Both the position numbers and the translations under genes were made by a program. This document shows, one piece after another, positions 1-16,162 of a stretch of DNA of 19,954 bases (position 1 is the stretch's first letter; each line of letters starts with the position of its first letter). Source of the stretch: a virus (lineage: Duplodnaviria > Heunggongvirae > Uroviricota > Caudoviricetes); the IMG/VR virus record IMGVR_UViG_2534681899_000007, one strand, 5' to 3'. The notes below the pieces were generated by a model. It saw only the letters and a list, made by a program, of their open reading frames with translations. It had not been told where the DNA came from and ran no database searches.

Positions 1-1284
1 TTACTTCTTCGCCTCTGCAACCACTTTACTACCCACGCCGCGGTTATTGTATTCCCACATGCGGTTGTAGTTAGTGTCATTCAGATTGCGCTGTATTTCG
101 TCGTTATCATCTACGCTGCCGGTATTACCCGCAAACGGACGATTAGAGATCACCGCATCGGCCCACGGTTTAGCCGTGTTAAAACCTTCGTTGATGGCGC
201 TATCACGGATCACCACCTGACCGTTGGTATTGGCATCAACATCCAGCGAGCGGCCCAGTTGCGCCACACCATCACCGAAAGCATTGAAACGGCTGTTTAC
301 GGCGAGGAAACCGTAGTAAATGTTGGACAGCGTAGCCGGTGCAAACACATACGCTTCTTGCTGAGTACGTGAGTTCACCACGCGGAATTCGGTGTTATCG
401 AACACCACTGCGCCGCGACCAGAAACGATATCCACATCCCCTTCAATGTAGCTGTTGGTCACCAGCGTACGCGGCTGACGGTTGGTTTCCAGACGGTTCT
501 GCACACCGCTGTTGGTGACAAAGAAGGTGTTCTGACGACCGAGAATGTTAACGTTGTTAATCTGTACCTGGTCACCATCAGTACGCAGTGCCACCGCCGG
601 ATGGTTACCTGCATCTACGCTATCGCCCAGCGTGTTTTCGATGGTCAGATTTTGCAGTTGCAGGCCATTGTTTTGTGACCAGAAGACCGCAGAGCAGAGA
701 ACACCGATACTGTCGCTGCGTTTGCTCTGGCAGCTATCGTACATATACCACGCTGGTTTACCTGGCATATATTTGCCGCGCGGGTTGACGTCGTGACGCC
801 AGTCGGCAGGGCTCATGCCACCATCAAGGGAAAGCCCAATCTTCACATCAATCGGTTTTTCACCTGTACCGTACAGAGTAATTCCACCCGGAGCGGCAGG
901 GACATATACCGTTCCCTGATACTCACCAGGCATCACGGCAATATACTGGCGCTTGTTGGTACGCTTGATAATTGCCGCATCTACCGCCGCCTGAATCGTG
1001 GTATGCGTTACACCTTGAGTGCCCGCCGGGCCGACAACAAAGTCAGGTTGCGCAGGCAGGGTAATCGGGGAAGGATTCCACGCTGCAGCACCTGGTGTCA
1101 GGGATGCAAAATAGTGTTGAGCATCGAAATTCTGCGCTTCTTTTGCCGACAGAATCGGGCGAGAAGAGGTACCAGGCGCGGTTTGATCAGAAGGACGTTG
1201 ATCGGGCGGGGTTGAGCTACAGGCGGTCAGCGTCACGCCAAAAGCCAATGCCAGCGCCAGACGGGAAACTGAAAATGTGTTCAC
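1..1284 (-). CDS. ybhC: YbhC-type outer-membrane lipoprotein (pectinesterase-like acyl-CoA thioesterase family); chromosomal gene flanking attB(lambda)
   Basis: Complete 427-aa ORF with an N-terminal signal peptide and lipobox (LTAC). The sequence is recognised as E. coli YbhC, which lies next to the lambda attachment site in the gal-bio interval. Confidence 0.88.
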   Translation of the reverse strand: MNTFSVSRLALALAFGVTLTACSSTPPDQRPSDQTAPGTSSRPILSAKEAQNFDAQHYFASLTPGAAAWNPSPITLPAQPDFVVGPAGTQGVTHTTIQAAVDAAIIKRTNKRQYIAVMPGEYQGTVYVPAAPGGITLYGTGEKPIDVKIGLSLDGGMSPADWRHDVNPRGKYMPGKPAWYMYDSCQSKRSDSIGVLCSAVFWSQNNGLQLQNLTIENTLGDSVDAGNHPAVALRTDGDQVQINNVNILGRQNTFFVTNSGVQNRLETNRQPRTLVTNSYIEGDVDIVSGRGAVVFDNTEFRVVNSRTQQEAYVFAPATLSNIYYGFLAVNSRFNAFGDGVAQLGRSLDVDANTNGQVVIRDSAINEGFNTAKPWADAVISNRPFAGNTGSVDDNDEIQRNLNDTNYNRMWEYNNRGVGSKVVAEAKK

Positions 1285-1330: not shown

Positions 1331-1422
1331 GCTTTTTTATACTAAGTTGGCATTATAAAAAAGCATTGCTTATCAATTTGTTGCAACGAACAGGTCACTA
1401 TCAGTCAAAATAAAATCATTAT
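1331..1422. other. attL (B-O-P'): 15-bp core GCTTTTTTATACTAA (1331-1345) plus P' arm with IHF site and Int arm-type sites
   Basis: Exact lambda core sequence. Bacterial-type B half (CCTGC) lies to the left and phage P' sequence (GTTGGCATTATAAAAAAGCATTGCTTATCAATTTGTTGC) to the right. IHF-like TATCAATTTGTTG is at about 1370-1382; arm-type repeats CAGGTCACTAT, CAGTCAAAAT and AAAATCATTAT are at 1391-1422. Confidence 0.9.
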
Positions 1423-2489
1423 TTGATTTCAATTTTGTCCCACTCCCTGCCTCTGTCATCACGATACTGTGATGCCATGGTGTCCGACTTATGCCCGAGA
1501 AGATGTTGAGCAAATTTATCGCTTATCTGCTTCTCATAGAGTCTTGCAGACAAACTGCGCAACTCGTGAAAGGTTGGCGGATCCCCTTCGAAGGAGAGAC
1601 CTGATGCTTTTCGTGCGCGCATAAAATACCTTGATACTGTGCCGGATGAAAGCGGTTCACGACGAGTAGATGCAATTATGGTTTCTCCGCCAAGAATCTT
1701 TTTGCATTTATCAAGTGTTTCCTTCATTGATATCCCGAGAGCATCAACATGCAATGTTGTTGGGATGGCAATTTTTACTCCTGTTTTGCTTTGCTCGACA
1801 TAAAGATATCCATCTACGATATCAGACCACTTCATTTCGCATAAATCACCAACTCGTTGCCCGGTAACAACAGCCAGTTCCATTGCAAGTCTGAGCCAAC
1901 ATGGTGATGATTCTGCTGCTTGATAAATTTTCAGGTATTCGTCAGCTGTAAGTCTTGATCTCCTTACCTCTGATTTTGCTGCGCGAGTGGCAGCGACCGG
2001 GTTTGTTGTTATATGGCCTTCAGCTATTGCCTCTCGGAATGCATCGCTCAGTGTTGATCTGATTAACTTGGCTGACGCCGCTTTGCCCTCGTCTATGTAT
2101 CCATTGAGCATTGCCGCAATTTCTTTTGTGGTGATGTTTTCAAGTGGAGCATCAGGCAGACCCCTCCTTATTGCTTTAATTTTGCTCATGTAATTTATGA
2201 GTGTCTTCTGCTTGATTCCTCTGCTGGCGAGGATTTTTTCGTAGCGATCAAGCCATGAATGTAACGTAACAGAATTATCACTGTTGATTCTTGCTGTCAG
2301 AGGCTTGTGTTTGTGTCCTGAGAATAACTCAATGTTGGCCTGTATAGCTTCAGTTATTGCTATCCTCCTGTCTCGGCCTAATCCAAACTCTTTACCAGTC
2401 CTTGGGTCCCTGTAGCAGTAATATCCATTGTTTCTTATATAAAGGTTAGGGGGTAAATCCCGGCGCTCATGACTTCGCCTTCTTCCCAT
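1419..2489 (-). CDS. int: Integrase, tyrosine recombinase (lambda Int, essentially identical)
   Basis: 356-aa ORF beginning MGRRRSHERRDLPPNLYIRNNGYYCYRDP and ending RDDRGREWDKIEIK, matching lambda Int as recalled. Its 3' end overlaps the P' arm as in lambda. Confidence 0.97.
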   Translation of the reverse strand: MGRRRSHERRDLPPNLYIRNNGYYCYRDPRTGKEFGLGRDRRIAITEAIQANIELFSGHKHKPLTARINSDNSVTLHSWLDRYEKILASRGIKQKTLINYMSKIKAIRRGLPDAPLENITTKEIAAMLNGYIDEGKAASAKLIRSTLSDAFREAIAEGHITTNPVAATRAAKSEVRRSRLTADEYLKIYQAAESSPCWLRLAMELAVVTGQRVGDLCEMKWSDIVDGYLYVEQSKTGVKIAIPTTLHVDALGISMKETLDKCKKILGGETIIASTRREPLSSGTVSRYFMRARKASGLSFEGDPPTFHELRSLSARLYEKQISDKFAQHLLGHKSDTMASQYRDDRGREWDKIEIK

Positions 2490-2685
2490 TTCTGATCCTC
2501 TTCAAAAGGCTACCTGTTACTGGTCGATTTAAGTCAACCTTTACCGCTGATTCGTGGAACAGATACTCTCTTCCATCCTTAACCGGAGGAGGGAATATCC
2601 TGCATTCGCGCACCCATCGACGAACTGTTTCAAGGCTTCTTGGGCGTCGCTGGCGTGCGTTCCACTCCTGAAGTGTCAAGTACAT
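2467..2685 (-). CDS. xis: Excisionase (lambda Xis)
   Basis: 72-aa ORF MYLTLQEWNARQRRPRSLETVRRWVRECRIFPPPVKDGREY, matching lambda Xis. It overlaps the int start by 23 nt as in lambda. Confidence 0.95.
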   Translation of the reverse strand: MYLTLQEWNARQRRPRSLETVRRWVRECRIFPPPVKDGREYLFHESAVKVDLNRPVTGSLLKRIRNGKKAKS

Positions 2686-2708
2686 CGCAAAGTCTCCGCA
2701 ATTACACG

Positions 2709-2735
2709 CAAGAAAAAACCGCCATCAGGCGGTTT
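2709..2735 (-). terminator. Intrinsic terminator for leftward transcription, upstream of xis
   Basis: On the minus strand: 8-bp GC-rich stem (AAACCGCC / GGCGGTTT) with a 4-nt loop, followed by a T-run (TTTTTTCT). It overlaps the stop codon of the 55-aa ORF. Confidence 0.6.
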
Positions 2736-2892
2736 GGTGTTCTTTCAGTTCTTCAATTCGAATATTGGTTACGTCTGCATGTGCTATCTGCGCCCACAGC
2801 ATCCAGTGGGCATAGCAGTCGTTGATGTCCTCTGCTTCGATAACTCTGTTGAATGGTTCTCCATTCCATTCACCTGTGACTCGGAAGTGCAT
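2725..2892 (-). CDS. Small hypothetical protein (55 aa), not in the supplied ORF track
   Basis: Manually translated: MHFRVTGEWNGEPFNRVIEAEDINDCYAHWMLWAQIAHADVTNIRIEELKEHQTA. A GGAG Shine-Dalgarno lies 7 nt upstream of the ATG and the intrinsic terminator follows immediately. It sits between the accessory operon and xis. Confidence 0.45.
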   Translation of the reverse strand: MHFRVTGEWNGEPFNRVIEAEDINDCYAHWMLWAQIAHADVTNIRIEELKEHQTA

Positions 2893-3050
2893 TTATCATC
2901 TCCATAAAACAAAACCCGCCGTAGCGAGTTCAGATAAAAGAAATCCCCGCGAGTGCGAGGATTGTTATTGTCTTTTCTTCGTGCATTTGTCGCACTTTCG
3001 GCACCATCCAGATAGGCACATCCGTCCGCAATTAACACATATAGGCCACA

Positions 3051-3332
3051 TCATTTCTCCTCTTTTGGTTTATGAATCTGAATGGTCATGCCGCTTTGAG
3101 TGGTGACTACAATGACAGAACCAGGCTGAAGACTGTTAAGATTGAATGCTTCGTAAAACGAATCCAATGCCAGTGCTTTTTTATTCTTTCGGTTCCACCA
3201 ACGCCATCCCCTGCTACAGGCCATGTTGACAATCCACTGCCCACTCCTGTAAGCCATATAAAACCAGATGAGCAAAACCTGAAGGAATGCTATCCAGTCA
3301 ATAATCGTATATTTCGCGAAGGAGTACATCAC
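3051..3332 (-). CDS. Hypothetical protein (93 aa) with an N-terminal hydrophobic segment, probably membrane-anchored
   Basis: ORF in a tightly packed leftward operon; ATGA start/stop overlap with the upstream gene. Hydrophobic stretch IIDWIAFLQVLLIWFYMAY. Confidence 0.55.
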   Translation of the reverse strand: MMYSFAKYTIIDWIAFLQVLLIWFYMAYRSGQWIVNMACSRGWRWWNRKNKKALALDSFYEAFNLNSLQPGSVIVVTTQSGMTIQIHKPKEEK

Positions 3333-3718
3333 TTCACCTCCTGCTGTGGTGCTGCTGGCATTTCACGCCAGTGCGTAACTGAGTGCGGATCCGGATATTC
3401 GGTGCCATCATCCCAGCGATTGCCATTCCACATTGCAGACCACATCTCACCGTCTTCATACATGACCATTACCGGAATTAACTTATCCGGCATTCGCTCA
3501 CTACAGCTTATCCAACCATCCGGAGTTACCGGAGAGTTGCCAGATGGCTCGTTCAACTTGTAAGTTTGGCTTACAGGTTCGGCTTCCAGCGATGCCAGTG
3601 CGATACGAAACACATTGGCAAGCAGGCTGTCTGAAGATTGGTTATCGTGCGCCGGGTCGCTCAGGAAACCAGTGATGAATGATTTAATCTCCGCGCGTTC
3701 TTTGGTAATGGTGGTCAT
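3329..3718 (-). CDS. DUF551-like phage protein (129 aa)
   Basis: C-terminal region DGWISCSERMPDK...VTHWREMPAAP resembles the DUF551 signature common in lambdoid prophage early regions. Operon context supports it. Confidence 0.6.
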   Translation of the reverse strand: MTTITKERAEIKSFITGFLSDPAHDNQSSDSLLANVFRIALASLEAEPVSQTYKLNEPSGNSPVTPDGWISCSERMPDKLIPVMVMYEDGEMWSAMWNGNRWDDGTEYPDPHSVTHWREMPAAPQQEVK

Positions 3719-3719
3719 A

Positions 3720-4019
3720 TCACATCACCCTGAAGCCGTTGCATTTACGTAAGAAATCGCAGATATAGCCCTTCATTTTTTCATGCCAATCTCGATCATT
3801 CCCATTGCACCAACCATCAGGTGGAGTCCAGTTTTCTATCAGAGCAGCCATTTTCTTTGCTTTCGCCGGAGTAGCTGTTGCGGTATCGCAGTAATGACGA
3901 GTGTCAACAAACTTATCCATGCCATCGATATCAAGTACGCAAAACCATGTGTGATTCGGCATTTCAACAGATGGTATTTGTTGCCCACGTCGACGTTTAT
4001 CAATAAGACATACAGTCAT
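3720..4019 (-). CDS. Hypothetical protein (99 aa), Cys/His/Trp-rich
   Basis: ORF tightly packed in the leftward operon; start overlaps the stop of the upstream ORF (ATGA). No family recognised. Confidence 0.5.
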   Translation of the reverse strand: MTVCLIDKRRRGQQIPSVEMPNHTWFCVLDIDGMDKFVDTRHYCDTATATPAKAKKMAALIENWTPPDGWCNGNDRDWHEKMKGYICDFLRKCNGFRVM

Positions 4020-4561
4020 GGTTCCACCTTCTCTATTTGCTTAAGACCGTCTCTCACTGCATTAAGTACGCGTTCCAGATATTGGTATTTCGGGTTTGGT
4101 ATTGTTGGCCAGTTGGCATACCACGGATCATCACCAAAGAGATTCAGTAGTTTGTTACCGACGCCGAAACAGCAGCAGTTTTCTTTTACGTCATCGGCGT
4201 TTTCCGCCTCGTCCCACATTTCGCGAGCCAGTACGGCGTCGATTTCTCTCTCTCTTCGTAACTTTATGATTTCTGACTTCACGAAAAGCAGATTTGCATC
4301 GTTGTCATCGTCGACCGTGCTTAGCAGTTGAGGGTCGAAATTGTCGATTAGATAATCGTTGCTAACTCGCTTAATGAACGTCTGCACATCATCACCGCCC
4401 ATAGCAAACCAAGCCGCTGTCCACGCTTTTCCGTAGCAGGTGATGGTGATTCTTCCCTTTCCATGTTCGTAGTTTTCAATCATCACTCGAACCGGATCTA
4501 GTCGCTCTGCACCGGTTATAACGAATGACAACACATCAATCTTTTCAACCGTTACACTCAC
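4016..4561 (-). CDS. Hypothetical protein (181 aa) with acidic stretches (DDDNDAN, DEAENADD) and a CCC motif
   Basis: Long ORF in the operon frame pattern. No family recognised. The true start may be slightly downstream, as the first 17 nt overlap the upstream gene. Confidence 0.55.
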   Translation of the reverse strand: MSVTVEKIDVLSFVITGAERLDPVRVMIENYEHGKGRITITCYGKAWTAAWFAMGGDDVQTFIKRVSNDYLIDNFDPQLLSTVDDDNDANLLFVKSEIIKLRREREIDAVLAREMWDEAENADDVKENCCCFGVGNKLLNLFGDDPWYANWPTIPNPKYQYLERVLNAVRDGLKQIEKVEP

Positions 4562-4865
4562 TGATTGCCTCCTTTGCTGGGCTTTCTAGCTTCTGAGTGG
4601 TTGTATCAAACTCAAACAACTTAACCACGTCATCAAACAGGACATAATCGCCATCAGAATCTTCAGTCATGTCAGCGCCACAATCCTGACCGCACGAGTC
4701 GCAACCTCCCATATCAAGCTCGTATCGCTTCAGGTTTGCGATATTTGATAAATTCAGCGCCAGTACAGCCAGGTCATAAACCTCTTCGGCGGTATACCCT
4801 GCGCCATGCCCATACATTTCAATGCGGGATATGATTTCTTCTACCCGTTGTTTTGTGATCGTCAT
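4545..4865 (-). CDS. Small highly acidic hypothetical protein (106 aa) with a CxxCxxxC cluster
   Basis: About 22 Asp/Glu versus about 8 Lys/Arg. Cys cluster CDSCGQDC plus a C-terminal Cys. ATGA overlap with the upstream gene. Confidence 0.55.
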   Translation of the reverse strand: MTITKQRVEEIISRIEMYGHGAGYTAEEVYDLAVLALNLSNIANLKRYELDMGGCDSCGQDCGADMTEDSDGDYVLFDDVVKLFEFDTTTQKLESPAKEAISECNG

Positions 4866-5425
4866 TTTTGCTCACCTCCCTGTTCTTCCAGAAAAATACG
4901 CATAGCCTCAAGCATCTCTTCGGTGTCATACGGAGACAGCTTGTCACGCAGGATGTGTTCAATGCTGTTAATGAACTTTCGGATTGCTTTGCGTTCAATT
5001 TCAGTCAGGAAAGCATCGGTGGCTGGGGTGTCTGATTGCATAGACTTTGCGCGATAGTCATTCCACCCTCTTGCATACATGGGATTAACTTGCACTCCAT
5101 CTTTTACGCAATATGCCTGCCCTCCACGGTTGATAACCTTGATTTCGTCCATAGCGCCAGACTTCAGCCCAGCATTCTCCGCCGCCAGCGCCGAAAACTT
5201 CTCGTGAGCCAACTTAACAGCCGCATCAGCCTGCTTAATTGACTCAATCGCTTTCTGGTGGTCTTCGGACAGAGCCGAAATCTTGGCCTCCGCTTCAGCA
5301 AATTTACGCACCAGATATTCAGCGTTTGTTTCGTTAACCTTTAAATCTCGTGGGATGCATTTACCTTTCAGAAATCCATCCATCTCAATTAGTGACATTT
5401 GTTTCATTTCTTCCCACTCCGCCAC
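4862..5425 (-). CDS. Hypothetical protein (187 aa); N-terminal half looks helical/coiled-coil, possibly Ea22-like
   Basis: ORF in operon. Ala/Glu/Lys-rich heptad-like segment ([46 protein letters not shown]). The Ea22-like assignment is a guess. Confidence 0.5.
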
Positions 5426-5601
5426 ATTGCATTCAGATATTTGTTTTGATTTACTGATGGAAAAGAATTTCTCTTAAGCAATTCCTCTCTCGATGGCATT
5501 GGCTTTACGCGTTGGCGAATAATCATTTCTGCCGGAAGAATGCCGGGATTGTATGCAAGTCCTCTCATGGTAAATTCCTCAGTCATTACTGATAGCGCCA
5601 T
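5404..5601 (-). CDS. Small hypothetical protein (65 aa, possibly starting at an internal Met)
   Basis: ORF fills the gap between two operon genes but overlaps both neighbours by about 22 nt. Coding status uncertain. Confidence 0.35.
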
Positions 5602-5875
5602 AGCGTGAGCGGTAATTACGCAGGCGCGGGTCGATATATTCAGGGAAGTGGGTATATGTGGCTTTGCGGAATGGTCGGATTGATGTTTCGTTTATTCGGT
5701 CTTTTTCCTGTTTTTCTGCGAGTTGTATATCGCGTCGGCACTTCCGTTCTTCTTTTGTTTCTGGTGGCAGAGCAAGAAACGCGTCGAGATTATTCTTGAT
5801 ATTTTCCAGCACCTCCGATACGGAATTGCCGGAACAGCGGCGCGGGTCATCCGCACCATACAGAGGCGCTGGCAT
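5579..5875 (-). CDS. Hypothetical protein (98 aa), basic
   Basis: ORF directly downstream of the exonuclease remnant in the same leftward orientation. No family recognised. Confidence 0.5.
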
Positions 5876-5891
5876 GGTTTTCTCCTGTTGA

Positions 5892-6164
5892 TTATTTAGC
5901 TAACTTTTTCCAGATCGCTGAAACGTATTTGGCTTGGTGAATGGCATCATCAAGCGCGTTGTGGCGAGTTCCTTTGAATGACATATCTCGCTTAGGGTCG
6001 AATCCTATTACCTTCCCAAGTTCGACGATTGTTCTTACGTCGCGGTCATTCCACCACTGCCACGGAACTGGCTGCCCTGTCAGCGAATAACTGTTTCGGA
6101 GAATAACGCAGTCAAATGATGCTCCATTCCCCCAAGCCGAAAGCAGACCGCAACGACCTCGCAA
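5892..6164 (-). pseudogene. DnaQ-like (DEDDh) 3'-5' exonuclease, C-terminal fragment (5'-truncated)
   Basis: Contains Exo II-like ([10 protein letters not shown]) and Exo III-like (HNALDDAIHQAKY) motifs, but the Exo I (DxE) region is absent. The upstream part of the ORF overlaps the helicase fragment on the opposite strand. Confidence 0.6.
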
Positions 6165-6553
6165 TTGCTCACATCTCCGGAAGCCTGAAGGCGATGGCGA
6201 AAGACCTGAAAACGCCGGTTATCTCCCTGAGTCAGCTTTCACGCGATGTTGAGAAGCGACCAAACAAACGCCCGACAAACGCAGATTTGCGTGATTCAGG
6301 AAGCATTGAACAGGACGCAGACTCAATCATCATGCTCTATCGGGAAGCTGTATATGACGAGAACAGTAGCGCCGCGCCATTTGCTGAAATCATTGTGACG
6401 AAAAACCGTTTTGGCTCACTTGGTACGGTTTACCAGCGGTTCTGCAACGGACACTTTGTTGCATGTGACCAGGATGAAGCCAGACAGATTTGCACAGCAT
6501 CAAATGCACCCGCTGCACGTGGAAGACGATATGCACAAGGGGCTGACGTATGA
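6116..6553 (+). pseudogene. DnaB-family replicative helicase, C-terminal fragment (5'-truncated)
   Basis: [45 protein letters not shown]...[16 protein letters not shown] matches the C-terminal RecA-like region of DnaB-type helicases (E. coli DnaB: [46 protein letters not shown]). The N-terminal roughly 300 aa are absent; an in-frame stop lies at 6104-6106. Confidence 0.75.
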
Positions 6554-6581
6554 CCGTCTACATCACTGAGATAATAACAGG

Positions 6582-6609
6582 GGCTATTTACACAGTAGCC
6601 CTTTTTTAT
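6582..6609 (+). terminator. Hairpin plus T-run (putative intrinsic terminator) at the helicase/terminase junction
   Basis: GGGCTA...TAGCCC stem followed by TTTTTTATT. Confidence 0.4.
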
Positions 6610-6637
6610 TGGATTAAGAACGAGGGGGATTCCTACG

Positions 6638-7270
6638 ATGGGTAGTGGTCGAATCTTCCAGATACCGGAAGAGACGATTAAGTGTCAGCCGTTCGAGTGT
6701 CCTGATCACTTCTACGTAATTGGTGGGATGGATTTTGGATGGGATCACCCACAGGCGCAGGTTCAGCTTTGGTGGGATAAGGACGCAGACACAATCTACG
6801 TTTCACGCGTGTGGAAGGCGAAAGAAAAAACAGCTGTTCAGGCATGGGGAGCTGTTAAATCATGGGCGCATAAAGTGCCAACCGCATGGCCTCATGACGG
6901 AAACCAGCATGAGAAGGGCGGCGGTGAGCAGCTCAAAGGGCAGTACGCGGACGCTGGTTTTATGATGTTGCAGGAGCATGCGACATGGCCTGATGGCGGT
7001 AACGCTGTGGAGCCTGGAATCACTGAATTGCGCGACATGATGCTTGATGGTCGCTTCAAAGTATTCAACACCTGTGAGCCATTCTTTGAGGAGTTCCGCC
7101 TCTATCACCGTGATGAAAACGGGAAGATCGTCAAGCTTAACGACGACGTGCTATCCGCCGTTCGCTATGCATACATGATGCGCCGCTTCGCCAAAATGAT
7201 GCGCGACATCAAAAAACCAAAAGAGAAAAAGATACCAGCCCCAATCAGGCCCATCGCACGGAGAACTTAA
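6638..7270 (+). pseudogene. Terminase large subunit, C-terminal nuclease-domain fragment (ATPase domain missing)
   Basis: 210-aa ORF with RNase-H-like nuclease-domain features (VIGGMDFGWDHP ... DDVLSAVRYAYMM). Its stop overlaps the portal start (TAAATG), as for P22 genes 2 and 1. An in-frame stop at 6596-6598 leaves no room for the ATPase domain. Confidence 0.7.
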
Positions 7271-8863
7271 ATGGCCGACGAAAACAGACTCAATTCCATT
7301 CTGTGTAAGTTTGACGCGGACTGGATGGCGAGCGATGAAGCCAGAACCGAGGCGACAAATGACCTGTATTTTAGCCGAGTGTCGCAATGGGATGACTGGC
7401 TATCAAACTACACTACCCTGCAATATCGCGGACAATTCGATGTTGTTCGCCCGGTGGTCAGGAAGCTGGTCGCAGAGATGCGCCGTAACCCTATCGACGT
7501 TCTCTTCAGACCAAAAGACGGAGCTAATCCTGATGCTGCCGATGTGTTGATGGGAATGTATCGTACCGATATGCGCCATAACACGGCAAAAATTGCCGTT
7601 AACGTTGGCGTTCGTGAGCAGATAGAGTCCGGCGTTGGTGCATGGCGTCTGGTCACACAGTACGAAGACAACGATCCAACAAGCAACAACCAGGTAATCA
7701 GACGCCTGCCAATCCATGAAGCCTGCTCACACGTCATATGGGACGCCAACAGCAAGCAGATGGATAAGAGCGACGCTAAGCACTGCACGGTGATTAACGC
7801 CTTGTCGCGCAATGGCTGGAAAGAGTTCGCAGAGGATTACGGTATTGATCCGGACACCTTGCCATCTTTCCAGAATCCGAACGATACATGGCTGTTTCCG
7901 TGGGTATCGAATGATGTCGTCTACGTCGCTGAGTATTACGAGGTCGAAGAGAAGAAAGAGAAAGTCTTCATCTACCGCGACCCGCTGACAGGTGAGCCGG
8001 TAAGCTATTACCAGCAGGATATCAAAGACGTCATCGACGACCTGGCTAATCGTGGATTCATTAAGGTAGCAGAGCGCAAGGTGAAGCGTCGGCGTGTGTA
8101 TAAGTCGATCATCACCTGTACGCAGATACTGAAAGACCGCGAGAAGATAGCCGGAGAGCATATTCCAATCGTTCCAGTGTATGGTGAATGGTCATTCGCT
8201 GGTGACAAGGAGTGCTACGAAGGAGTGGTAAGGCTGACGAAAGACGGTCAACGCCTTCGTAACATGATCATGTCGTTCAACGCCGATATTGTTGCTCGTT
8301 CACCGAAGAAGAAACCGACCTTCTTCCCTGAGCAAATCGAAGGCTACGAATACATGTACGGTGGAAATGATGACTATCCGTACTATCTGCAGAACAGGAC
8401 CGATGAAAACGGTAACGACCTGCCGATTGGTCCAATCTCCTACATGGAAAACCCTGAAGTGCCGCAAGCCAACGCTTACATGCTTGAGGCAGCCACCAAC
8501 GCAGTGAAAGAGGTGGCTAGTCTTGGAGTGGATGCGCAGGCGGCAAATGGTCAGGTCGCTTTCGATACCGTCAATCAACTGAACATGCGGGCAGACCTTG
8601 AGACATACGTGTTTCAGGATAACCTGGCTACCGCAATGCGACGTGATGGCGAGATTTATGCCTCAATGGTCAACGATATTTATGACGTTCCTCGCCATGT
8701 AACGCTGACTCTTGAAGACGGAAGCGAGAAAGACGTTCAACTCTACGCGCAAGTTGTAGATTATCCAAACCGTATGCCTGTTGGTAGCGGTAACCAGTTG
8801 GCGAAGTGGAACGGTTGGAATTACTTCCACCGGAAGGAACCTTGCGATAACGGGAGCGAATAA
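7271..8863 (+). CDS. Portal protein (P22 gp1-like), C-terminally shortened or chimeric: 530 aa versus about 725 aa
   Basis: N-terminal roughly 490 aa closely resemble P22 portal as recalled ([18 protein letters not shown]..., [13 protein letters not shown]..., [22 protein letters not shown]...). The last roughly 35 aa do not, and the ORF stops immediately before gp10. Confidence 0.8.
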
Positions 8864-15421: not shown

Positions 15422-15811
15422 TTAACATTTTCTTTTTACTTTTCCAACAAAAGCTTTGGTTGAATCCATATTCCCATAACCAGAAATGGTTTTCGACATT
15501 AAAACTGTTCCATTAGGATGTATTACCCATGAGTCGATAACTCGTTGAGTTTCGCCATTCGCGCCGATTCCAATGATGGAGTTTTTAGACAATGCTTTGT
15601 AAGCCATGCCGCCCGCATCCGTCCCAGAATATGTGATACTGGCATCTTCACCGTTTGTCTTAATGATGAATGTTCCACTAAAACCATCTTCTTCCGGTTG
15701 AAAATTATTTCGTTCTGAATAGCTTATTCCGTGCATATCTCCAACGACCCAGCACTCTGCTGAGACAGAAAACGAGAAGACAAGGAAAGCCATTGCTATA
15801 ATCAATTTCAT
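15422..15811 (-). CDS. Small Sec-exported protein (129 aa), beta-rich, Cys near both ends of the mature chain; moron in the mnt operon
   Basis: Signal peptide MKLIIAMAFLVFSFSVSA with cleavage after SVSA. AAGGG Shine-Dalgarno 5 nt upstream of the ATG. AT-rich relative to flanking phage genes. Lies 15 nt downstream of the other moron ORF. Confidence 0.65.
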   Translation of the reverse strand: MKLIIAMAFLVFSFSVSAECWVVGDMHGISYSERNNFQPEEDGFSGTFIIKTNGEDASITYSGTDAGGMAYKALSKNSIIGIGANGETQRVIDSWVIHPNGTVLMSKTISGYGNMDSTKAFVGKVKRKC

Positions 15812-15826
15812 TTTAAGCCCTTATTG

Positions 15827-16162
15827 TTATTGATTCTTTTTGCACGGAAATGTTTTTCCTACTGCTAGGGCGGTTAGTATAACTGCACTCTCATTTCTTG
15901 ATTCTGGGTTTTTGTTTAGATATTTCTCAACGATATCGGTGTATTGATACATGTCAACGCCATCAGGAGGACATAGAGAACCAATTAGTATCAATGAGTC
16001 AGTTACTCCGCGCAAATATCCAGTAATGTAAAGCGATGAAAAATCATCACCCTTTTTACCTTGTTGAATGTTGTAAAGAAGGTCATTACCCGTTTGAAGC
16101 TCGCGCAGCTCAGCACTGGAAGAAGAGACAACTGCTAACAAGAACAGTGATAGAAATCTCAT
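15827..16162 (-). CDS. Small Sec-exported protein (111 aa), probably helical with 2 Cys; possible Rap1a/Tai4-like periplasmic immunity-type fold (tentative)
   Basis: Signal peptide MRFLSLFLLAVVSSSSA. Its start codon overlaps the mnt stop (ATGA) and an AAGGA Shine-Dalgarno lies inside the mnt 3' end. Mature part contains ...GYLRGVTDSL...SLCPPDG...ILTALAVGKTFPC. Confidence 0.65.
   Translation of the reverse strand: MRFLSLFLLAVVSSSSAELRELQTGNDLLYNIQQGKKGDDFSSLYITGYLRGVTDSLILIGSLCPPDGVDMYQYTDIVEKYLNKNPESRNESAVILTALAVGKTFPCKKNQ

Follow-up and report, generated by a model that had tools for sequence, protein, structure and literature searches.

What does a tightly packed run of small genes beside the integration module of a prophage do, and which of its products act on host defences? 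The question is raised by 19,954 nucleotides of Caudoviricetes DNA (IMG/VR record IMGVR_UViG_2534681899_000007; henceforth the window, that is, the whole stretch that was analysed), in which a first-pass annotation made from the letters alone had singled out a compact leftward operon of about nine small genes. It had read these genes as int-proximal, early-left cargo for host takeover or anti-defence, with the small acidic proteins as candidate DNA mimics or defence inhibitors. We conclude that the region is very probably a variable early-left accessory cluster, lying between the recombination genes and the excisionase gene xis, that has become a transcriptionally orphaned fossil. It is a region of a known kind, named exo-xis in lambda and represented by the ea genes in P22, made up of genes of existing families and already described as a hotspot for anti-defence and lysogeny-modulating functions. 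The cluster encodes the RecBCD-directed protein Abc2 and a homologue of the Oad2 family, neither of which the first-pass annotation had recognised. The general idea of host-takeover or anti-defence cargo, already established for such regions, is therefore upheld by these two proteins; since support for it attaches to them and not to the acidic proteins, the earlier interpretation was right in general and wrong in its candidates.

Nine intact open reading frames (ORFs) on the minus strand fill positions 2725-5875, between an exonuclease remnant (ORF 5892-6164) and xis (2467-2685), with a coding density of about 95% (about 2982 of 3151 bases, calculated from the coordinates), which bears out the compact leftward arrangement first described. 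Because each of the nine has a strong match to a family or homologue (E values from 2e-18 to 3e-86), we regard all of them as real genes. Eight belong to named families (Abc2, DUF2737, Oad2/EaE, Phage_phiTE_072, DUF7739, DUF551, DUF4752 and lambda Orf55), contrary to the initial impression that no family could be named with confidence. Start and stop codons overlap as ATGA at 4016-4019, 4862-4865 and 5404-5407. The first two of these junctions had been listed correctly and the third had been missed, while the ATGA reported at 3329-3332 in fact reads GTGA; the junction there is likely a TGATG with an overlap of 1 nucleotide, in which the ATG at 3329-3327 opens a 92-residue product, as in the calls of gene callers and RefSeq. 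The genes for the 106-residue acidic protein and the 181-residue phiTE_072 protein overlap by 17 nucleotides, and the remaining gaps measure 1, 10 and 16 nucleotides, plus one of 158 nucleotides (2893-3050). The cluster thus consists of genes on one strand whose start and stop codons overlap or lie close together, as expected of an early-left operon driven by pL.

The gene at the upstream end of the cluster (5579-5875, minus strand) encodes a protein of 98 residues that matches the Pfam model PF11043 over residues 1-98 (E 6e-44; 148.6 bits against a cut-off of 25) and the solved P22 protein in PDB entry 8B1T (E 5e-40). Compared with P22 Abc2 (8B1T/8B1U; 97 residues), it is 71% identical overall, its N-terminal 23 residues are the same, the RPF motif aligns and Pro68 is kept. 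In the P22 protein Pro68 sits in the active site of the host protein PpiB and engages it; Abc2 itself binds RecC and is believed to adapt RecBCD to the needs of the phage (PMC9836394). Judged by sequence, ORF 5579-5875 is Abc2, a member of this RecC-binding family of RecBCD hijackers. It differs from the P22 situation in that the partner recombinase has been deleted from the window prophage, so that the window Abc2 is left without a phage partner for its role in recombination. Next to it lies a DUF2737 gene (5404-5568, minus strand), the equivalent of P22 orf56, with 75% identity to the P22 product and a Pfam E value of 4.9e-31 (106.8 bits, over the Pfam gathering threshold; cut-offs 22 to 27). 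In line with existing gene calls, its start is likely Met12 of a longer ORF, which gives a protein of 54 residues.

The DUF2737 gene is followed, through the ATGA at 5404-5407, by a gene whose product had been described as a coiled-coil-like protein of 187 residues. A heptad pattern does run through residues 34-68 (equalled by 1 of 300 shuffles on a crude score of our own), whereas the length needs correction, as the start is most likely the ATG at 5407 and the protein then has 181 residues (4862-5407, minus strand). Over its full length (181 against 175 residues) it is 39% identical to gp27 of phage HK446 (E 2e-40). A preprint of July 2026 reports that HK446 gp27, recovered from a genomic library, rescues cells lacking RecB from the toxicity of OLD; gp27, there named Oad2, was shown to bind P2 OLD and to stop the tetrameric enzyme from working, and a relation to P22 EaE was noted (10.64898/2026.07.10.737580). 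When the window protein is aligned with its counterparts from HK446 and HK75, with P22 EaE, to which it is weakly similar, and with two E. coli prophage versions, the N-terminus and a C-terminal motif are conserved and a coiled-coil stretch is apparent. The motif TPATDAFL is invariant, the invariant columns including T127, A129, T130, D131, A132, F133, L134 and E136. Relative to Oad2 itself, the first 33 residues are almost identical and the TPATDAFL and C-terminal motifs are kept, whereas the central and C-terminal parts have diverged. The slot is also the same: the gene comes directly after the DUF2737 gene, with an ATGA overlap, in an Abc2 neighbourhood, and the HK446 and HK75 loci are arranged alike. 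On sequence criteria the membership of ORF 4862-5407 in the Oad2/EaE family is solid. We also considered an identity as Ea22, suggested by RefSeq labels nearby, and rejected it: there is no similarity to lambda Ea22 (BLASTP E 11) and no match to Ea22 in Pfam, where only two weak and unrelated matches, Phage_Mu_Gam and ZnuA, appear at E <= 0.1.

How might such a cluster work? In intact relatives, transcription would run leftward from pL under N antitermination through the genes as one packed unit within minutes of infection or induction, and translation of successive genes would be coupled where their stop and start codons overlap. Abc2 would bind RecC and redirect RecBCD to the benefit of the phage, and the Oad2-family protein would bind an OLD-type nuclease, an abortive-infection enzyme that responds to the disabling of RecBCD, and keep it from acting. 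Pairing a manipulator of RecBCD with an inhibitor of the abortive system that guards RecBCD has been proposed as the logic of this hotspot (10.64898/2026.07.10.737580); P22 Abc2 itself did not trigger P2 OLD (PMC12445682). The other seven products (Orf55, DUF4752, DUF551, DUF7739, phiTE_072, the 106-residue protein and DUF2737) are small uncharacterised proteins; several are modular, with genes that phages swap as cassettes.

The window has lost the means for such expression. The first-pass annotation had taken pL to be lost, and we find a deletion junction at 6134-6141 that removes both pL and N. It was located from the ends of homology matches and by comparison with an intact relative. On its left lies the C-terminal remnant of a Rv2179c-like 3'-5' exonuclease (5892-6141 within ORF 5892-6164, minus strand; Pfam model positions 100-177 of 177), a protein of 182 residues where the gene is intact in relatives. 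On its right, outside the cluster and in the opposite orientation, lies the C-terminal remnant of a DnaB-like helicase (6116-6553, plus strand; Pfam DnaB_C, E 4.7e-37, model positions 146-247 of 255). Homology to the exonuclease stops at 6138-6141 and homology to the helicase gene starts at 6134. Past the exonuclease gene, intact relatives carry ssb, a Rad52 or RecT recombinase, kil, cIII, N and the repressor gene, and what was lost at the junction comprises ssb, the recombinase, kil, cIII, N, pL, the repressor and the replication origin region. Upstream of the cluster, pL, N and the nut site are accordingly missing from the window and present in relatives. Because pL, N and the immunity region are deleted, the cluster is probably silent in this strain, as far as its sequence tells. 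Searches of 5,426 complete E. coli genomes and of the GTDB species representatives did not turn up the junction; the draft assembly GCA_000352485.1 has an arrangement identical to the exonuclease/DnaB junction of the window.

The cluster can be set beside two known early-left regions. As in the ea region of P22-like phages (eaC ... orf56, abc2), the order is abc2, orf56/DUF2737, an EaE-family gene, further small ea genes, xis and int, and likeness extends, beyond the identities given above, to the DUF551 protein, which resembles both the N- and the C-terminal part of P22 EaA. Unlike P22, the window has int, xis and orf55 of lambda type and an exonuclease remnant upstream in place of abc1/erf, and P22 has no counterpart of the 106-residue, phiTE_072, DUF7739 and DUF4752 proteins. 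With the lambda exo-xis region (orf60a, orf63, orf61, ea22, ea8.5, orf55) the cluster shares its direction and its position between recombination genes and xis, a composition of small, non-essential, mosaic genes, and close similarity of Orf55 (93%) and Int (99%), whereas no homologue of ea22, ea8.5, orf60a, orf61 or orf63 is detectable in the window.

The genes move as cassettes, which matches published accounts of a phage accessory region. Two other prophages, whose integrases, integration sites and recombination modules are different, share a segment of the cluster at 99.6-99.8% identity. One boundary of this segment, at about 3488 or 3573 according to the backbone, lies inside the DUF551 gene, where the N-terminal module gives way to the DUF551 domain; the other, at 5569, coincides with the start codon of the DUF2737 gene. 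In yet other prophages the slots from DUF2737 to xis are filled by very different genes, among them genes for Lar, Ea8.5 and YfdS-family proteins. Among 5,426 complete E. coli genomes, 621 contain sequence similar to the segment encoding the phiTE_072 and 106-residue proteins.

Given this position, could the main effect of the uncharacterised genes be on host physiology and on the phage's choice between lysis and lysogeny, rather than on defences? The locus corresponds to the lambda exo-xis region and retains an orf55 homologue, and in lambda Ea22 is reported to be pro-lysogenic, orf60a, orf61 and orf63 pro-lytic and Ea8.5 linked to cell division; functional studies of the region have been published (PMC7093339, PMC3824215). 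The DUF551 gene (3329-3718, minus strand) can be read in the same direction. Its product of 129 residues combines an N-terminal helical module with a DUF551 domain at residues 68-125 (Pfam E 2.4e-18, 67.2 bits, cut-offs 22 to 27), in agreement with the first annotation of a DUF551-like protein. DUF551 and the design of an N-terminal segment joined to a variable C-terminal domain have been described for Ea22 variants, and the DUF551-containing protein YfdS has been tied to tolerance of oxidative stress; taken together with its neighbours, it has also been tied to inhibited initiation of replication. Against such a role, the lambda genes with these effects (those for Ea22, orf60a, orf61, orf63 and Ea8.5) are the very ones that lack a detectable homologue in the window; the phiTE_072 and 106-residue families occur in strictly virulent phages, where a function in lysogeny makes no sense; and two genes of the cluster come from families whose tested members oppose defence or repair systems. 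We think it unlikely that tuning of this decision and of host physiology is the main business of these genes.

The acidic proteins deserve separate attention. The 106-residue protein (4545-4865, minus strand) has a net charge of -14, an isoelectric point of 4.1 and the cysteines C55-x2-C58-x3-C62, so that the charge and the CxxCxxxC cluster noted at first are indeed present; the cluster, however, is not fully conserved, as C62 is invariant among homologues and C55 is conserved in at least 90% of them, while C58 is often Phe. A fourth cysteine, C104, belongs to a tail whose sequence is set by the adjoining gene. With only two of the three cysteines conserved, a self-contained CxxCxxxC metal site is unlikely, and a two-cysteine metal site may be shared across a dimer. 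The protein comprises a helical module (residues 1-43), an acidic Cys-loop domain (residues 44-88) and the tail (residues 97-106). The helical module matches phrog_3323 weakly, a model that the N-terminus of the DUF551 protein also matches. The final ten residues of the protein (AKEAISECNG) derive from DNA that also serves the phiTE_072 gene as leader and ribosome-binding site, and they recur in the Lar-family restriction-alleviation protein that holds the same slot in another prophage. Membership in the Lar family is not indicated, as likeness is confined to these 10 residues (AKEAxSECNG) and the zinc-ribbon body shows no similarity.

The Cys-loop domain is portable. We defined it by a profile search of 1.84 billion representative proteins followed by domain extraction, which gave the consensus [LI][KR]R[YF][DE]LDxxxCDS[CF]GQDCGA[DE]MxExxDG[DE][YF]V; the 45 residues in the window protein include 13 acidic and 3 basic ones. 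Of the 110 representative proteins that the search newly retrieved, 79 have the domain, in N-proximal, central or C-terminal position within proteins of 60-365 residues, and its fusion partners include DUF551 and a dATP/dGTP pyrophosphohydrolase. No model covers it in our local Pfam copy or in the precomputed Pfam annotation of the collection, and we regard it as a mildly new, uncurated acidic Cys-loop domain of about 40 residues. The AlphaFold2 model of the 106-residue protein has a mean predicted local distance difference test (pLDDT) score of 53.9, too poor for fold comparison. Two long database proteins, P0300 (2824 residues) and P0311 (1218 residues), showed 10-11 matched stretches each to the profile of the 106-residue family, and P0311 resembles a repetitive coiled-coil protein. 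These matches are probably due to low complexity, and a model of the domain alone gives at most one domain per protein.

The adjoining gene (4016-4561, minus strand) has a GTG start behind an AAGGAGG ribosome-binding site and encodes the 181-residue protein for which acidic stretches had rightly been noted (net charge -11, with the stretch DDDND). Recorded annotation places the identical gene, and each of the 120 homologues listed, in the family Phage_phiTE_072 (PF26211); the model is missing from our local Pfam copy, and the assignment is taken from that annotation. The window protein is about 40% identical to phiTE_072 itself, and relatives of 25-40% identity are found in phiTE-like myophages, SSU5-type phage-plasmids and phages of Pseudomonas, Vibrio and Pseudoalteromonas. 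A literature search on phiTE_072 returned no match. Its AlphaFold2 model is confident (pLDDT 87.7) and shows a four-stranded sheet followed by helices. The first-pass annotation had pointed to mimics of the Ocr/ArdA type; the model matched none of the solved structures in the PDB, Ocr and ArdA included, which argues that the protein is not Ocr-like or ArdA-like. On the strength of this model, nothing beyond the net charge of -11 suggests DNA mimicry, and the predicted fold, lacking a solved match, appears mildly new.

Immediately downstream, through an ATGA overlap, lies the gene for a DUF7739 protein of 99 residues with 6 cysteines (3720-4019, minus strand; Pfam E 1.2e-20, 74.4 bits). This adjacency recurs in 8 of the 8 E. 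coli prophage loci examined, and we asked whether the two genes form an obligate pair. As a general rule this was rejected, as phiTE, SSU5 and Pseudomonas phage 8P have no adjacent DUF7739; the gene after phiTE_072 in phage 8P (locus L006, 2552-3034) carries DUF7740 instead. Single database variants (P0003, P0006 and P0007) fuse the 106-residue protein with phiTE_072, phiTE_072 with DUF7739 (P0006) or phiTE_072 with DUF551. Such gene fusions are expected when single-base changes strike overlapping stop/start junctions, and the 287-position profile phrog_3451 probably includes one of them.

Could these two acidic families nevertheless be counter-defence components? One version of the idea is that the Cys-loop domain, as an effector or targeting module which lambdoid and Jersey-like phages join to various partner domains and which might dimerise around a metal site with two cysteines from each partner or serve as a small mimic of nucleic acid, and the widely distributed phiTE_072 protein, as a broad-host-range inhibitor of a bacterial defence system, are new components of this kind. 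We consider this doubtful; if it were true, they would make up a four-component counter-defence cassette together with Abc2 and the Oad2 homologue. The narrower version, in which the 106-residue and phiTE_072 proteins mimic DNA or otherwise directly inhibit restriction-modification or similar defences that target nucleic acids, seems to us improbable. The net charges of -14 and -11 and the excess of acidic over basic residues in the Cys-loop domain would suit mimicry, and the Lar-family gene that takes the 106-residue slot in another prophage overlaps the phiTE_072 gene by the same 17 nucleotides. Both families occur in virulent phages (Jersey-like Salmonella siphophages and phiTE-like myophages), which counter-defence fits better than lysogeny, and their neighbours Abc2 and the Oad2 homologue come from families with demonstrated counter-defence activity. 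The searches point the other way. For these two proteins, neither Pfam, NCBIfam nor PADLOC gave a match to Ocr, ArdA, ArdB/KlcA, Lar, Ral, Gam or any other anti-restriction family. The one hint in favour, from Lar, is a matter of position. The NCBIfam scan of the nine ORFs yielded no family match, its lone entry being a negligible PcsB far under the cut-off, and the PADLOC scan yielded two negligible matches. Sequence searches of the PDB with the phiTE_072, 106-residue, Oad2-like, Orf55, DUF551 and DUF7739 proteins returned nothing meaningful, and peptide strings from the window ORFs were not found in the supplements of published accessory-gene screens that we searched. With Ocr and ArdA the acidic proteins share small size and negative charge only; acidity is common among cytoplasmic proteins, and the Cys-loop domain, one module among many in its proteins, seems closer in character to an adaptor or an oligomerisation module than to a mimic acting on its own. 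We retain the view of a mosaic accessory cluster whose counter-defence element lies in the families of Abc2 and Oad2.

Several points weigh against that view. Tested roles reach the families of only two of the nine genes. The evidence on Oad2 comes from a single preprint, ahead of peer review, and at 39% identity to the tested protein the activity and target of the window homologue are uncertain: even the HK75 homologue, 54% identical, fails to inhibit P2 OLD, a sign of narrow specificity (10.64898/2026.07.10.737580). As to silence, a scan of the minus strand from 2300 to 7400 found no sigma-70-like promoter, but this was a crude consensus search, and the cluster may have a weak promoter or one that does not depend on sigma-70. 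Finally, the nine frames have stayed intact despite loss of the promoter, which could mean selection; here the 100% identity of a 3.9-kb region in other assemblies with differently decayed versions of the prophage favours recency, since it indicates that the decay is recent and that the intact frames say nothing about selection. Domestication of the cluster, with the host keeping and expressing the genes from an unrecognised promoter for stress tolerance or phage exclusion, for example, could draw on the contrast between nine intact frames and truncated exonuclease, helicase, terminase and portal genes, on persistence in several differently decayed versions and on the precedent of the cryptic prophage genes yfdQRST, but it is very unlikely, as that identity leaves no time for selection to show, the scan found no promoter-like site and the deletions merely happen to end outside the cluster.

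The two remaining genes of the cluster lie toward xis. The DUF4752 protein (3051-3329, minus strand; 92 residues from the ATG at 3329; Pfam E 5.7e-35, 119.7 bits) has one predicted transmembrane helix at residues 8-26 (Kyte-Doolittle 19-residue maximum 1.78). The lambda Orf55 homologue (2725-2892, minus strand; 55 residues; phrog_676) is 93% identical to lambdap35 (51 of 55 residues), and its gene adjoins xis as in lambda. A modelling paper likened Orf55, speculatively, to T7 Gp2 (PMC8614690). A consensus scan placed two terminator-like hairpins on the minus strand at 2912-2963, in the 158-nucleotide gap between the DUF4752 gene and orf55, and a bidirectional one at 2716-2735, over the orf55 stop codon and just upstream of xis. 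Together, orf55 and its flanking hairpins form a segment of about 257 base pairs (2713-2969) that is 96-98% identical across prophages; since these prophages have unrelated excisionases (torI type) and other integration sites, the segment evidently moves as a small module of its own.

The wider window is a hybrid prophage, part lambda-int and part P22-like, that sits at the lambda attB next to ybhC and is defective through several deletions. This follows from the order of its parts, which begin with the E. coli gene ybhC (1-1284, minus strand), the first gene of the window. Between ybhC and int comes an exact match to the core of the lambda attachment site, GCTTTTTTATACTAA, as attL (1331-1345, plus strand; 0 of 200 shuffles gave any match). 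There follow an integrase with 99% identity to lambda Int (1419-2489, minus strand), xis (minus strand; Pfam Exc, E 3.9e-41), the nine genes and then the remnants of the exonuclease, DnaB, terminase and portal genes. The terminase large-subunit C-terminal remnant lies at 6638-7270, beyond the DnaB remnant. A second deletion, at 6553-6640, joined the end of the DnaB remnant to the terminase remnant, and a terminator-like hairpin (6579-6603) lies between the two. Because the nin region is kept there in related assemblies (loci L007 and L010), this deletion is younger than the exonuclease/DnaB junction.

Farther downstream, the P22-type portal gene is cut near residue 490, leaving an ORF of 530 residues whose end coincides exactly with the start of gene 10. 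Similarity to the P22 portal stops at about 8742 in the window (P22 coordinate 3176), and similarity to gene 10 starts at 8863 (P22 6787), from which we conclude that the portal C-terminus, scaffold, coat and gene 4 have been deleted. Beyond the portal gene lie P22-like genes 10, 26, 14, 7, 20 and 16, plus a tailspike gene. Two minus-strand genes of low GC content (about 0.41-0.42) occupy 15422-16162, between the homologue of P22 gene 16 and the antirepressor/tailspike genes; one encodes a 111-residue protein that matches the Rap1a type VI secretion immunity family (Pfam E 9.7e-15), and the other a 129-residue protein of phrog_2651. This pair looks like a moron inserted in a low-GC gap of the late-gene region.

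What, then, does the locus mean for phages of this kind? The cluster adds one more ordinary case to the long-known mosaic accessory regions, caught in a decayed prophage, and its value is practical. An Oad2-family gene stands beside Abc2 in a very common E. coli prophage cassette, an arrangement that fits the recent hotspot-pairing proposal, and the widespread phiTE_072, DUF7739 and acidic Cys-loop families are sensible candidates for anti-defence screens.

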